DNA of 64,000 nucleotides from Escherichia phage BME3, in the sequence record PP239276.1, one strand, 5' to 3'. A program made the position numbers and the translations under genes. Position 1 is the first letter of the stretch. Every line of letters starts with the position of its first letter. Positions 9,388 through 28,662 of this stretch are shown piece by piece. A model generated the notes under the pieces. That model did not search any database. It was not told the DNA's origin and worked only from the letters and a program-made list of their open reading frames with translations.

Positions 9388-9942
9388 TTACACAATGCAA
9401 TTTTCATAATTTTCTAAGGCTTGTCTTTTTTCCTCTTCCGTTGGCATGTATGGCTGGATCTCTTCCTCTTCCAGGGTAGACATGATTTCTTCCTCTTCCT
9501 CCTGGTCGCCCTGGTCTTCCTCTTGCGCTATGGTAACAAGTTTATTGATCTTCTCCTGGGCTTTAATCAATTTTGCATCTAGCACCATTTTAGCGGTGTT
9601 GTATACCGTCCATGCCATGCGCTTTTCTTCGTATGCCTTATCTAGTGCGGCTAATTTAGCGGGATACTCTTCCAACACCTTAAAAGCCGGATCAATGCTG
9701 TATAAGGGATTATTTTTAGCGTCATCGCTTGGATCTGCGGCGCTTGCAATGTCAGCGTTACCATTCGCCAGCCATCCAGGGCGAACGGATCGTGTCCTGG
9801 TGTTGCCGTTGCTCTTTGCCGCTCGATTTCCTATCTGCTCCCCGCTATACCCTACCATGTGATCGATCATGTCATCTGGTATTATGCGCGGATCATTAGC
9901 ATCATGCTTTACCCAGGACTGGATCACATATTCACGCCCCAT
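9388..9942 (-). CDS. hypothetical early protein with poly-acidic C-terminal region (184 aa)
   Basis: ORF track; EEDQGDQEEEEEIMSTLEEEE stretch. Confidence 0.6.
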   Translation of the reverse strand: MGREYVIQSWVKHDANDPRIIPDDMIDHMVGYSGEQIGNRAAKSNGNTRTRSVRPGWLANGNADIASAADPSDDAKNNPLYSIDPAFKVLEEYPAKLAALDKAYEEKRMAWTVYNTAKMVLDAKLIKAQEKINKLVTIAQEEDQGDQEEEEEIMSTLEEEEIQPYMPTEEEKRQALENYENCIV

Positions 9943-11174: not shown

Positions 11175-11236
11175 GAGCGGCACTATTGCCGCCCCTCGAC
11201 AAGATGAATACTACGCTACCAGGTGAGGAACGTCAA
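11175..11236 (-). promoter_or_regulatory. outermost early promoter plus leader hairpin
   Basis: TTGACG (11231-11236), 17 nt, TAGTAT (11208-11213), hairpin gagcggcactattgccgccc. Confidence 0.55.
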
Positions 11237-11271
11237 CCATTTTTTTAATCTTTTTTTCATTTCTTTTTTGC

Positions 11272-11300
11272 TTGCTATCTATAAAGGAAACGGCTATTAT
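11272..11300 (+). promoter_or_regulatory. divergent sigma70-like promoter (TTGCTA-17-TATTAT)
   Basis: -35 at 11272-11277, -10 at 11295-11300, upstream of ATG 11348. Confidence 0.45.
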
Positions 11301-11347: not shown

Positions 11348-11614
11348 ATGACAAATACTCCTTTACATCTCATGCACTCATTGGGCTGGCAAGGCGGCAC
11401 GGTGCACCAGGTAGCAAGCGCAACGGGCTTAAAGGTTGAAACCGTTCTCAACCTGGGCGATCATAAAGTGGAAGAGATAGAACATTTTGATCCGTTCGCT
11501 GATGGTTATCTATGGGCTTGCAGTGGCGGTGGGGAAAGCAAGATCCCACCAGGGGCGCGGGGCGACATGTATTTTTGGTTAGGTGTCCTATCCTGGCAAG
11601 AAAACAAAAAATAA
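11348..11614 (+). CDS. hypothetical protein (88 aa)
   Basis: ORF track; RBS aaagaaaggg. Confidence 0.55.
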   Translation: MTNTPLHLMHSLGWQGGTVHQVASATGLKVETVLNLGDHKVEEIEHFDPFADGYLWACSGGGESKIPPGARGDMYFWLGVLSWQENKK

Positions 11615-11616
11615 TC

Positions 11617-11645
11617 TTGACAAGCCCAGGGATCGGGCTTATACT
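11617..11645 (+). promoter_or_regulatory. strong sigma70-like promoter (TTGACA-17-TATACT) with no obvious downstream ORF
   Basis: -35 at 11617-11622, -10 at 11640-11645; spacer contains hairpin agccc-n7-gggct. Confidence 0.45.
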
Positions 11646-11875
11646 GTTTTACATACAGAAGAGGAAGCGCCACCCCCACGGCGTAAAGGCGGGGCTAACA
11701 TACCAGGGGGCACTGGTTGGAAGGTTGATCGCCGGTAGCTCGTCTAAAATAAATTTGTAAAGAAATGTAAAGATAAAAATAATCGCTTGCTTTTGTTGTT
11801 GGTTATGCTATTCTTATTGTATGGCGAGGGGACACGGGAGCGCGAGACAAACACCACCCCTGCGCGTTATTCTCT

Positions 11876-11990
11876 AAATGAGAAAAATTCTCATTTGCTA
11901 ATGATTCTCATTCTCTTAGTGAGAATGATTATCACTTACATAATTAAATGATAATGATTCTCATTTACAAATGAGAATGATTATCATCCG
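11876..11990. repeat. Array of Fur-box-like palindromes
   Basis: aatgagaa/ttctcatt, tcattctc-ttagt-gagaatga, tctcattt-aca-aaatgaga; gagaatgattatca core recurs. Confidence 0.5.
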
Positions 11991-12010
11991 CACACCCATA
12001 AAAACACGAA

Positions 12011-12225
12011 ATTGAACTTTTCATTTTTGATTTTTCTACGGAAAAAGGCAAAAAAACTTTAAATAAACTGGGGAATTTTTTAAAAATTGAAGTTTTCATT
12101 TTCAAAATCTGGATAGAAATACATACAAAAACTTTAAATAATTTTGACCAAACTTGAACTTTTCATTTTCAAAATTTGTATCCAAAAATCTGTAAAAACT
12201 TTAAATAATTTTGTCCTTTTTATAA
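12011..12225. repeat. Three imperfect tandem repeats of about 68-75 bp
   Basis: Units start near 12011, 12086, 12153; each has ttgaacttttcattttcaaaat and aaaactttaaataa. Confidence 0.6.
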
Positions 12226-12427
12226 AAATGATTTTACTGTTCTGTTATAAATAGTAGTTAAGAGATAGTATGCCTTTTAAAAACCAGATATCATAATCCA
12301 ACAAACAAATTAAATAATTTATTAACAGAGTACAAAATAATATTTACTCTGAATATATTATTCAGAGGGTGAATTTCCGTACATGAAACCCACACCCCTT
12401 TTTATAAAAATAAAAATTTTCAAAATA

Positions 12428-12979
12428 TCAGGAAATATCAGATTGTGCTTTTAGATAAACAGCAAGGTCTGTATGCCATTTTCCTAAAAGATTTTGTCCT
12501 TTCCAACAGTCCTTATTTTCCACGTCACGATCCCACATCCCCATTTTGATACCATAAATAGAATCATAAGGGCTTGCCTCTACGAACTCCTTATCTGCGT
12601 AGGTTATAAGTTTATTTTTGAGATCTTCATTTTGTGTGTATTTAAGATACAAACCACGTTTGACAATCTTCTCCCGTAAAGAAGTCCAGGTATCTTCATC
12701 ATAATCTTTAACTAATCTGCCTAGTCGCTTATAATATGCTTGTTCTTTTTCTCCTGTATATCTTAGATCTCCGGTTAAAATAGAAGATGCAATACTGTAA
12801 TCATAAAACAAACATGCTTTTCTCCACATCATATATTGTTCCACACAAGTAAATTCAACAGAACTTGTAATAGAATTATTATACTTGGGTGCTAAAGGTT
12901 CAATAAAAGATGATAGATACCAGTTGCTAAATTCATCTTTTGCTGAAAAGAAGAACACATACTTATCAGTAATCCGCAT
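12428..12979 (-). CDS. NADAR-domain (YbiA-like) protein
   Basis: FFFSAKDEFSNWY, CVEQYMMWRKA and GMWD motifs fit NADAR pattern; TAA-ATG coupling to upstream gene. Confidence 0.6.
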   Translation of the reverse strand: MRITDKYVFFFSAKDEFSNWYLSSFIEPLAPKYNNSITSSVEFTCVEQYMMWRKACLFYDYSIASSILTGDLRYTGEKEQAYYKRLGRLVKDYDEDTWTSLREKIVKRGLYLKYTQNEDLKNKLITYADKEFVEASPYDSIYGIKMGMWDRDVENKDCWKGQNLLGKWHTDLAVYLKAQSDIS

Positions 12980-26820: not shown

Positions 26821-26848
26821 AAAGCCAGCTTAATGCTGGCTTTTATTT
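26821..26848 (+). terminator. hairpin terminator aaagccagc-ttaat-gctggcttt
   Basis: T-rich tail; between 25823..26773 and nrdD. Confidence 0.5.
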
Positions 26849-26862
26849 TCCACGGAGGATTA

Positions 26863-28662
26863 ATGACCCAAAAACTATATGAGGATGTAATCGGATTCCT
26901 CGAACAAACATCCGAAGAATTTACTCGTGAAAATGCAAACAAACCTGCAATGATTGTTAATACTCACCGAGATTTACTAGCAGGTATCCTAAGCAAGCAC
27001 ATGGCAATGACCCATATTTTACCTGAAGATTTAGCAGAATGGCATAAAAGTGGGTATGGTCACATCCACGATTTAGATTATTTACTCTCACCTTTAACTA
27101 ATTGTTGCCTGGTAAATTACCAAGATATGCTTGAGAATGGTTTCCGTATTGGTAATGCACATATTGAAAAACCAAAATCTATTGGCGTAGCAACTACTGT
27201 CCTAACTCAAATTATTCAAGCAGTAGCTTCTAGCCAATATGGTGGACAAACTTGTGCACATATTGATACTGGGCTTAGTCAATACGTTAAAGCAAGTTTT
27301 AATAAAATATATGCCGATGTTGGCGATTATGATATTGCTATGCGTATGGTAGATAAACAGGTTTACGATGCAATGCAAACTTTAATCTACCAGGTGAACA
27401 CCCTAATGAGTGTAAATGGTCAGTCACCTTTTATAACAATTAGTTTAGGTTTGGATACCTCTGCTTTTGGTAGAATGATCACTAAAAACTACCTAATGGT
27501 GCACAAACAAGGATTAGGAAAAGATAGGGTAACTCCTGTGTTTCCTAAAGTTATCTTCTTCTTAGAAGATGGTGTTAACATGAAAGCTGGCGATCCAAAC
27601 TATGATTTGAAGCAACTGGCAATGGAGTGTTGTGCTGAACGCATTTATCCTGATTTTATCTCTGTACCTTTAAACAAAGAAGTTACAGGATCTTCAGATG
27701 GTCGCGTCACAAGCATGGGTTGCCGTAGTTTCTTGTCATACTATGCAACAGAGCAAGGTGAAAAGTATGATGGTCGTTTCAACTTAGGTGTAGTTTCTTT
27801 AAACTTACCTATCATTGCAGCAGAGTCCCGTGAAAAAGGCATCTTATTTACTGAACTGTTGGAACAACATATGGAGATGGCGTATAAGGCACATATGCTA
27901 CGTGTTAACCGTATCAGACATACCAAAGCATCTCAAAACCCTACATTGTTTATGGAAGGGGCTTTAGCTCGACTAGAAGCTAATGAAGAGATTGGTAAAC
28001 TATTTGAAGGTGGTTATGCCTCTATTAGTATCGGTTATGTAGGTTTAGCAGAAGCTATGGAAATTTTATACCCAAATAACACCAATCCAAAAGCAATGGG
28101 TAAAAACATCCTTCAATATATGAAGGATATCTGTTGCACATTTAAAGAACGTTCTGGTTTAGCTTTTAGTTTGTATGGAACACCAGCAGAATCCTTGTGC
28201 TATAAATTTGCCAAAGCGTTAAATGATCGCTATCCTGGTTCTATTGATCGTGACTACTTGACAAACTCTTTCCATCAACCTGTATGGATGCACACTACCC
28301 CGTTCCAAAAATGGGATTATGAGGAAGGTTTTGCACAAATTAGTAATGGTGGGAACATAGGTTATGTAGAAACACCAAACCTTAAAAATAACTTGCAAGC
28401 ACTGGAAACTCTTGTAGATTATGCCTACAACAAAATTCCTTACTTTGGCGTGAACCAACCTGTAGATCAGTGTTTCAAATGTGGTTTTCATGGTGAATTT
28501 AAGGCAACAGCTAAAGGCTTCGAGTGTCCAAGTTGTGGTAATCATGAAGAAGAATCTATATCTGTGATCAGAAGAGTGTCAGGATACCTTTCTGCCCCTA
28601 ACTCTCGCCCTTATAATAAAGGTAAAATGCAAGAGGTACTAGAAAGGGAGAAACACTTTTGA
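26863..28662 (+). CDS. nrdD: anaerobic ribonucleoside-triphosphate reductase (class III)
   Basis: C-terminal Zn ribbon CFKCGF...CPSCGN and glycyl-radical motif RRVSGYL; start trimmed to ATG 26863 with RBS ggagga. Confidence 0.85.
   Translation: MTQKLYEDVIGFLEQTSEEFTRENANKPAMIVNTHRDLLAGILSKHMAMTHILPEDLAEWHKSGYGHIHDLDYLLSPLTNCCLVNYQDMLENGFRIGNAHIEKPKSIGVATTVLTQIIQAVASSQYGGQTCAHIDTGLSQYVKASFNKIYADVGDYDIAMRMVDKQVYDAMQTLIYQVNTLMSVNGQSPFITISLGLDTSAFGRMITKNYLMVHKQGLGKDRVTPVFPKVIFFLEDGVNMKAGDPNYDLKQLAMECCAERIYPDFISVPLNKEVTGSSDGRVTSMGCRSFLSYYATEQGEKYDGRFNLGVVSLNLPIIAAESREKGILFTELLEQHMEMAYKAHMLRVNRIRHTKASQNPTLFMEGALARLEANEEIGKLFEGGYASISIGYVGLAEAMEILYPNNTNPKAMGKNILQYMKDICCTFKERSGLAFSLYGTPAESLCYKFAKALNDRYPGSIDRDYLTNSFHQPVWMHTTPFQKWDYEEGFAQISNGGNIGYVETPNLKNNLQALETLVDYAYNKIPYFGVNQPVDQCFKCGFHGEFKATAKGFECPSCGNHEEESISVIRRVSGYLSAPNSRPYNKGKMQEVLEREKHF

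Follow-up and report, generated by a model that had tools for sequence, protein, structure and literature searches.

Fur boxes and their known carriers

The closest described counterparts of the locus treated here are the Fur boxes of enterobacterial iron-uptake genes (fepA-fes, fepB-entC, fhuA, cirA and the aerobactin iucA operator). The locus itself is an array of five palindromic units at positions 11877-11988 of Escherichia phage BME3 (sequence record PP239276.1), within a stretch of 64,000 nucleotides that was analysed as a whole and is called the window below. Natural Fur sites typically show paired boxes offset by 6 bp, at which two dimers bind on opposite faces of the DNA. In Escherichia coli K-12, Fur clusters measure 19-142 bp and 83% of them overlap a promoter.

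Temperate phages likewise carry host Fur sites on their DNA, and the stx1 promoter is one example. In the literature searched (the T5 papers and full-text literature), the sole phage-borne Fur box reported is that of lambdoid prophages, upstream of their sitABCD cargo operon (PMC6969025), and none is reported in the gene-free regions of lytic phages or at the injection-stop signal of phage T5. The boxes of temperate phages are single promoter operators of a cargo gene expressed in the lysogen, whereas the arrays described below occupy core gene-free regions of lytic phages, and the terminal repeat as well. The Fur box as such is textbook knowledge; its occurrence in arrays, in the core gene-free regions and terminal repeats of strictly lytic phages, seems not to have been described in that literature. 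The array of BME3 can be regarded as a familiar operator in an unfamiliar carrier, layout and context.

The array and the iron-uptake boxes share the same 19-bp or 7-1-7 consensus, with interchangeable scores. Further, the BME3 clusters extend up to ~110 bp, within the range of K-12, and the sister clusters of the array contain pairs offset by 6 bp, as K-12 sites do. Unlike the iron-uptake boxes, however, the array belongs to a strictly virulent phage; it lies in a gene-free region, and no iron-related gene follows downstream. Its units are separate, 17-29 bp apart, with no overlapping hexamer runs, and they occupy +55 to +170 of a promoter without overlapping any good one.

The window comes from a phi92-like virulent myophage (genus Justusliebigvirus, subfamily Stephanstirmvirinae). 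Over the 1 kb around the array, identity is 99% with phage vB_Eco_PATM and 97.7% with phi92, and positions 11780-12010 (231 bases) are identical to phi92. The array sits in an 814-bp gene-free gap (11615-12427).

Five predicted Fur boxes

The stretch 11877-11988 resolves into five 19-bp palindromic units of the 7-1-7 type, with the 15-bp cores TGAGAAAAATTCTCA (11879-93), TGCTAATGATTCTCA (11896-910), TGAGAATGATTATCA (11920-34, and once more at 11972-86) and TGATAATGATTCTCA (11949-63). The centres are 17, 24, 29 and 23 bp apart, and Tandem Repeats Finder detects a 29-bp period. An earlier, sequence-only reading of this DNA had described three inverted repeats here, all of which are present: aatgagaa/ttctcatt at 11877-11884 and 11888-11895, tcattctc-ttagt-gagaatga at 11908-11928, and atgattctcattt/aaatgagaatgat within 19-nt arms (11948-11966 and 11969-11987) that are 95% complementary. 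The spacer of the last repeat is 2 nt and not the 3 nt given, and the three repeats, real as they are, are better described as five 15-bp palindromes. That reading had also traced a shared core to 56-1236, where it indeed recurs at 55-69, 250-264 (a perfect TGATAATGATTATCA), 1161-75 and 1219-33. The position that it gave for the array, between a divergent promoter region and tandem repeats, agrees with what surrounds it: at 11208-11300 both strands have promoter-like matches, at 11617-11645 follows a consensus-like promoter, and the tandem repeats occupy 12009-12229.

All three motif counts far exceed those expected by shuffling. The 14-mer of the earlier reading, GAGAATGATTATCA, has 12 matches with at most two mismatches (0.97 expected), the 19-mer Fur consensus has five with at most three mismatches (0.01 expected), and the 7-1-7 motif TGATAATnATTATCA has five with at most one mismatch (0.13 expected). 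A chance or low-complexity origin of the array was considered and is ruled out by these statistics.

Bit scores, here and throughout, derive from a matrix built from five Fur-regulated intergenic regions of K-12 only, with no phage input. Box 1 (11877-11895, AATGAGAAAAATTCTCATT) has perfectly symmetric outer arms, scores 15.7 bits, differs from TGATAATnATTATCA at three positions and is centred at ~+65 of the predicted start of a promoter, P2, discussed below. Box 2 (11894-11912, TTTGCTAATGATTCTCATT) reaches 16.7 bits with three mismatches to the 19-mer Fur consensus, and box 3 (11918-11936, AGTGAGAATGATTATCACT) 15.1 bits with a single mismatch to the 7-1-7 motif. The strongest is box 4 (11947-11965, AATGATAATGATTCTCATT; 21.5 bits, three mismatches to the 19-mer), followed downstream by box 5 (11970-11988, AATGAGAATGATTATCATC; 18.1 bits). 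All five lie within one to three mismatches of the 15-mer, the Fur consensus being stated either as the 19-bp GATAATGATAATCATTATC or in its 7-1-7 form. Their range of 15.1-21.5 bits compares with 14.9-18.8 bits for K-12 sites outside the training set. With the same matrix, ten sites of at least 14 bits are found in the window, against 0.35 expected.

The converse scan gave a matching result. A matrix made from nine phage sites alone was run over 135 kb of K-12 DNA, of which the five known Fur-regulated intergenic regions make up ~1%. Seven of the ten top matches fell in these regions and every region was represented: fepA-fes, fepD-entS, fepB-entC (with three matches), fhuA and cirA. An eighth, upstream of yeiT/preT, is among the strongest Fur clusters of an experimentally trained model (PMC2189734). 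The phage motif thus picks out genuine host Fur-regulated promoters. Expectation-maximisation on the five K-12 regions yielded AATGATAATAATTATCATT; motif discovery without any prior, on the gene-free gaps of eight phage lineages, yielded AAATGAGAATGATTATCAT, which correlates with the K-12 matrix at 0.88, against at most 0.61 for column shuffles. By these three independent tests, the five units qualify as Fur boxes at the level of sequence.

Comparison of the array with 5,426 E. coli genomes by BLAST returned matches of 26-35 nt only, mostly in small plasmids and with E-values of 1-4. As this search was uninformative, matrix scans of K-12 regions were used instead. The array-like matches are Fur-box-like stretches lying mostly in unannotated parts of 13-kb plasmids (five of seven records, e.g. 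NZ_CP020521.1 and NZ_CP035869.1).

The units could instead be operators for a phage DNA-binding protein of Fur-like specificity, for example the product of the syntenic gene at 11348-11614. This small gene always flanks the module, and since its 88-aa product has no recognisable domain (no DNA-binding domain either, in Pfam and PHROGs), a role in DNA binding is conceivable. Against this, the phage motif and the host Fur matrix are interchangeable in both directions, and the identical motif recurs in arrays of separately classified phages: Stephanstirmvirinae, Vequintavirinae, RaK2, T5-like Demerecviridae and assorted metagenomic contigs. Nor was a Fur homologue found in these coliphage and Klebsiella phage groups: when E. 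coli Fur was searched by tblastn (E <= 0.01), none of the records named Escherichia, Klebsiella or Erwinia phage, the groups with such arrays, was matched. A phage-encoded binder is accordingly quite improbable. The same search returned a 99% match to E. coli Fur in a 1.9-kb unannotated contig labelled 'Salmonella phage'.

An RNA-level role, in which the palindromes serve as terminator or processing hairpins in a transcript from the upstream promoters P1 and P2, is very unlikely. The array does lie within the predicted transcript, and boxes 4 and 5, which together make up the 19-nt inverted repeat that is 95% complementary, could form a 19-bp hairpin. However, single 7-1-7 units would leave a 1-nt loop and cannot fold alone, the stems are AT-rich and not followed by a T-run, and a terminator scan found no intrinsic terminator in the array. 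Half-sites often differ (GAGAAT vs GATAAT) in a way that breaks pairing and keeps the Fur consensus, while pairing between boxes is lost as their spacing and number change across lineages. A search of Rfam at a permissive threshold gave microRNA-family noise only (E-values 0.3-0.7).

Strong boxes elsewhere in the genome

Strong boxes are confined to two gene-free regions, bar one isolated match. In a complete 148-kb relative, Justusliebigvirus alia, ten sites reach at least 14 bits, where 0.7 would be expected. The array accounts for five of them and a second gene-free region (corresponding to 53-1235 of the window) for four, and the remaining one is an isolated 14.5-bit match elsewhere. Two Fur clusters of the second region lie within the terminal repeat.

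In the window, the direct terminal repeat is placed at 1-343 by homology to phi92, for which 343-bp repeats are annotated at 1-343 and 148270-148612. Base 1 of the window is the physical genome end, its first bases being the reverse complement of the last bases of the phi92 repeat, and the whole repeat is likewise in reverse complement. For BME3 itself, read-start analysis with PhageTerm gave a repeat of 342 bp. Two sister double boxes fall within it, one at 53-77 (21.2 + 12.8 bits, with a 6-bp offset) and one at 248-272 (16.4 + 13.4 bits), which contains the perfect TGATAATGATTATCA with zero mismatches. A third double box (1159-1183; 14.5 + 10.9 bits) lies beside the most AT-rich stretch of the genome, and a further box at 1217-1235 scores 19.0 bits. 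The paired arrangement of natural Fur sites thus recurs in the sister clusters (sites starting at 53/59, 248/254 and 1159/1165) and also in T5; the array units, at 17-29 bp, have a weak offset partner at 11975 only.

Much as P2, described below, precedes the array, a promoter (10/12 match) in the terminal repeat stands about 100 nt ahead of a Fur double box. In the window, the promoter-like site of the repeat is on the minus strand at 205-177 and reads TTGGCA, 17 nt, TAGACT, where phi92 has TTGACA. The stretch 843-1142, flanked by the terminal repeat on one side and by the terminal block's last gene on the other, is with 18.7% G+C the lowest 300 bp of the genome and contains several short repeats, e.g. 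TAGATAGATTATAGTTA and GTATGAAAT. By eye, a CAACAAATAG/GCAATAGTA-like motif can be counted five or six times at 330-480, just within the terminal repeat boundary.

Promoters upstream of the array

Two plus-strand promoters precede the boxes. P1 (11617-11645; TTGACA, 17 nt, TATACT) matches the consensus at 11/12 positions and is conserved in relatives. A hairpin, AAGCCCAGGGATCGGGCTT, flagged as the terminator of gene 11348-11614, lies at 11622-11640 inside the P1 spacer, so that terminator and promoter overlap.

Directly downstream of P1 lies a conserved plus-strand transcribed element of ~100 nt with 48% G+C (11646-11745), common to Klebsiella, Salmonella (PVP-SE1) and Raoultella phages. An alignment of five lineages gives a plausible structure of 18 predicted pairs, with an invariant CGCC/GGCG hairpin and a longer helix that contains two compensatory pairs; covariation is weak, and no Rfam family matched. 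The element may be a phage small RNA.

The predicted promoter P2 (11787-11814; TTGCTT, 16 nt, TATTCT) is placed by conservation: the homologous position scores 9/12 in Klebsiella phi1_175008, PVP-SE1, Tr1 and Ro1. Upstream of it, on the same strand, stands the direct repeat GTAAA-N5-GTAAA (11757-11771), which exactly fits the consensus published for CpxR, GTAAA-N5-6-GTAAA (PMC9600279). It is the sole exact match in the 64 kb, where 0.36 are expected, a count that alone is not significant; what gives the match weight is that nine related loci have kept it in this position. The repeat is centred at ~-58 or ~-47 of P2, the difference being a single 10-bp insertion, or one helical turn. In the cpxP promoter of K-12, a CpxR-activated promoter examined as a control, the same repeat lies at ~-60, in the opposite orientation relative to transcription. 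The repeat of the phages stands at an activating distance from a promoter, which supports its reading as a CpxR-type box and as a second sign that sites for host regulators build this region. It also suggests that P2 is activated by envelope stress; in BME3, P2 is weak and probably activator-dependent.

P2 is followed by a conserved leader of ~55 nt (11815-11876, plus strand; ATGGCGAGGGG...CCTGCGCGTTATTCTCTA, also seen as ATGGCGAGGGG...CCTGCGCGTTATTCT) that runs into box 1. Between phi92-like phages and PVP-SE1 or Cronobacter phages it retains ~80% identity, and its reading frames are broken by indels between lineages. The 5' end of the leader (ACATAG/ACATGG, then CGGGA) resembles the start of the P1 transcript and that of a transcript in phage RaK2.

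Conservation of the module

The order of elements is constant: a small gene, P1, the G+C-rich transcribed element, GTAAA-N5-GTAAA, P2, the leader of ~55 nt, one to five Fur boxes and AT-rich tandem units of ~70 bp. This module is kept in Justusliebigvirus, in Phapecoctavirus (tuntematon, phAPEC8), in Klebsiella phi1_175008 and in Citrobacter phage Tr1, and also in a separate subfamily, Vequintavirinae (PVP-SE1, Raoultella phage Ro1). Several database records annotate 'hypothetical proteins' across its elements; if Fur binds there, these calls are probably spurious.

The most conserved relation is that of a promoter with Fur boxes beginning ~55 nt downstream. In five lineages, 71-73 bp separate the P2 -10 element from the midpoint of the first box, which places the box at ~+65. 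The number and spacing of the boxes vary between lineages, although the 29-bp spacing recurs, and the Fur consensus is kept in each box. When four close genomes are compared, seven array columns vary, six of them within boxes, and the boxes still score 15-21.5 bits in the two genomes that were scored. Boxes that change while their consensus is kept fit selection for binding, not for an exact sequence.

A candidate iron-responsive roadblock

Taken together, these features point to a cluster of five predicted high-affinity operators for host Fur, most likely an iron-responsive operator or roadblock, a reading to which we give about as much credence as doubt. We infer Fur occupancy, the roadblock effect and the role of the AT-rich repeats as follows. 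In iron-replete cells, Fe2+-Fur dimers would fill ~110 bp, from ~55 nt downstream of P2 to the edge of the AT-rich repeats. Bound Fur would block RNA polymerase arriving from P1 and P2, and would also mask the weak internal promoter-like matches of boxes 4 and 5. Both the opening of the AT-rich repeats and their transcription from upstream would thereby become iron-dependent. Upon iron limitation, Fur would leave and the block would be lifted.

The choice of a roadblock or gate follows from the promoter map. The only promoter-like matches within the boxes score 9/12 and arise from the palindromes (on either strand, TATCAT of box 5 pairs with TTCTCA of box 4 across an 18-nt spacer); the conserved, well-predicted promoters lie upstream, with the boxes at +55 to +170. 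Without a good promoter over the boxes, occlusion of the classical kind is unlikely, and an iron-dependent roadblock or gate is favoured. The terms 'Fur-box-like core' and 'operator cluster' of the sequence-only reading therefore withstand the reciprocal matrix scans and the motif discovery without prior, provided that the cluster is not taken for a classical promoter-occluding operator, since no strong sigma-70 promoter overlaps it. Promoter overlap is a typical feature of Fur boxes, not a defining one.

Several observations weigh against an iron-responsive roadblock. The lack of a strong sigma-70 promoter over the boxes contrasts with the overlap seen for most K-12 clusters. P2 scores just 7/12 in the window and is not called by a simple promoter scan. 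Nothing coding lies downstream of P2, and the next gene converges on it. In the four close genomes, 5.8% of the array columns are variable, compared with 2.0% in the stretch from P1 to the leader. Because the array is no less variable than its flanks, simple phylogenetic footprinting lends no support, which comes solely from the maintained matrix scores. Finally, such arrays in other phages neighbour genes for replication or packaging, or are found in the injection-stop region of T5; a structural role would account for this no less well than a transcriptional one.

AT-rich repeats and a possible architectural role

Next to box 5 begin three AT-rich, iteron-like tandem units of 67-75 bp (12009-12229), each with TTGAAC/G-TTTTCATTTT and AACTTTAAATAA. 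The latter motif was considered as a dispersed promoter motif, an idea rejected on finding it inside the tandem units only. G+C content is 23% over 11991-12427, and 12042-12341 is the second lowest 300 bp of the related genome. The two lowest-G+C 300-bp stretches of this 148-kb relative (18.7% and 21.7%) each directly adjoin one Fur cluster. Conceivable roles for the repeats are those of a transcription-activated origin, of a platform for binding or of promoters used by a modified polymerase.

This neighbourhood is the starting point of the main rival to the roadblock. Fur would act as a DNA-shaping accessory on the iterons, in replication initiation, in concatemer processing and packaging, or in pausing and anchoring incoming DNA, much as IHF does at lambda cos or DnaA at origins, and no transcript would be regulated. 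The position of the array beside iteron-like AT-rich repeats fits such an origin-like or architectural role, as do the pairing of each Fur cluster with one of the two lowest-G+C stretches and the presence of two clusters within the 343-bp terminal repeat. Iteron-type origins (lambda ori, plasmid oriV, and the transcription-activated origins of T7 and T4) share with the locus promoters firing into AT-rich tandem repeats and a block of host-protein sites.

Unlike these origins, however, the array has tandem repeats in an AT-rich stretch without an adjacent initiator gene, DnaA box, IHF site or skew signal. No DnaA box (TTATNCACA) and no IHF consensus was found in the gap, and both occur in the window at chance frequency. 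The cumulative GC and AT skews have no turning point at the array; their turning points track gene orientation. The sequence-only reading had named a replication or packaging signal as the alternative to an operator cluster. The array may act as such a signal, though not itself as a terminal packaging site: 11.9 kb separate it from the physical genome end, and only the sister boxes at 53-272 lie in the terminal repeat. A transcriptional rather than an architectural role is indicated by the constant position of the first box at +65 of P2 and by the CpxR-type box. Further, Fur is to our knowledge not known as an accessory factor of replication, packaging or origins. On balance, an architectural platform is possible, with a probability well below that of the roadblock.

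Fur arrays in T5 and other phages

Much of what speaks for a structural role comes from other phages. The array sequence also matches T5-like phages. In T5 (AY587007), boxes of 14-21.6 bits lie at 9473-9491, 9577-9595 and 9612-9636, and the annotated copies of 'direct repeat C' and palindromes E-I of the injection-stop region (9468-9637), in the left terminal repeat, correspond in sequence to predicted Fur boxes and half-boxes. This gene-free region presents, in order, DnaA boxes, Fur boxes and nine iteron-like copies of 'direct repeat D' (DRD), a layout shared by SPC35 and in keeping with an architectural platform. The calculated shear point of first-step transfer (9618) falls within the last T5 double box (9612-9636).

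The BME3 region resembles that of T5 in composition and in relative position. Both phages have Fur boxes in a large, gene-free, repeat-rich region beside iteron-like repeats, and both have them at a similar depth: the T5 array lies 7.8-7.9% of the genome length from the end, and the BME3 array ~11.5-11.9 kb, or ~7.8-8.1%, in its gap with palindromes and tandem repeats. The T5 array, however, is within a 10-kb terminal repeat and is accompanied by paired DnaA boxes, whereas here the terminal repeat has 343 bp and the gap contains no DnaA boxes. Among 19 genes scanned from the terminal block, there was no relative of the A1/A2-type pre-early genes of T5: in Pfam and PHROGs, no DNA-binding domain and no A1/A2-like family was found, 18 of the proteins matching PHROGs families of unknown function only and one matching none. 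T5 transfers its DNA in two steps. By analogy, Fur arrays might be the host-factor part of DNA-entry control in large virulent coliphages: the T5 block of direct repeat C and palindromes E-I would act via Fur, the phi92-like array at ~8% from the end would close the terminal block of small genes, and staged or paused entry would be tied to host iron. This proposal is speculative and has little probability, and the positional coincidence at 8% may be due to chance.

The jumbo phage RaK2 (Klebsiella) has the unit of promoter, leader and box in the same geometry, plus an extra five-box array. All of these lie in a gene-free region of 1.5 kb (at 224.4-226.9 kb of its genome), together with GTAAA-N5-GTAAA and numerous copies of CAGTACTG/AGTACT. 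In IMG/VR, a pattern scan gave 24 loci with adjacent boxes, in varied settings. One of them, L037 (IMGVR_UViG_3300025120_000601), combines six Fur boxes, which recur with a 37-bp period, and directly behind them four tandem iterons of 17 bp, CCGAAACCACGTTCCAG; this block (270-620) is 2 kb from a Prim-Pol/PriCT_2/AAA_25 primase-helicase gene and beside a PD-(D/E)XK nuclease gene. In L032 and L033 the arrays are 0.9-2.1 kb from a large-terminase gene, and in L019 the array is 3 kb from a T7-type primase-helicase gene. The loci with iterons or a terminase gene nearby again favour architecture.

T5 also bears on the idea of a Fur sponge, in which ~11 strong boxes per genome, multiplied by replication, would titrate Fur off host promoters and de-repress iron uptake for iron-dependent phage enzymes. 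With 15-21.5 bits, the boxes equal the best host sites in strength, and their clustering is like that used in plasmid-based Fur titration assays. Among the phage's gene products is an anaerobic ribonucleotide reductase, NrdD (26833-28662), and activation of NrdD requires an iron-sulfur activase. A sponge, however, needs neither a fixed promoter distance nor iterons nearby nor a place in the terminal repeat. Moreover, T5 has similar arrays yet degrades host DNA within minutes, so that nothing would be gained there by de-repressing host genes. A cell contains thousands of Fur molecules, and titration would hence come late in infection. A sponge is thus unlikely and, like the phage-encoded binder and the RNA hairpin, a weaker explanation than the roadblock.

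Implications

If Fur binds these arrays, several widely used groups of therapeutic phages (phi92-, phAPEC8-, rV5-, PVP-SE1- and T5-like phages and RaK2-like jumbo phages) would read the iron state of the host and perhaps, via the CpxR-type box, envelope stress as well. Both differ sharply between laboratory broth and sites of infection. Fur binding would also give the long unexplained injection-stop repeats of T5 a concrete host factor, and a recurring Fur array with iterons would mark replication or packaging control in poorly mapped genomes.

Neighbouring genes and database records

To the left, the gap is bordered by the small plus-strand gene 11348-11614, the equivalent of phi92 gp224; to the right, by the 3' end of a converging minus-strand gene (12428-12979) for a NADAR-domain protein. 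A domain scan of the neighbouring proteins gave the unassigned 88-aa protein, the NADAR protein and a CapR + T5orf172 protein. Finally, five records labelled 'Campylobacter phage' (MG065639, MG065645, MG065650, MG065656 and MG065689) are 95% identical here to phi92-like and phAPEC8-like phages of E. coli, and are probably mislabelled or contaminant assemblies.

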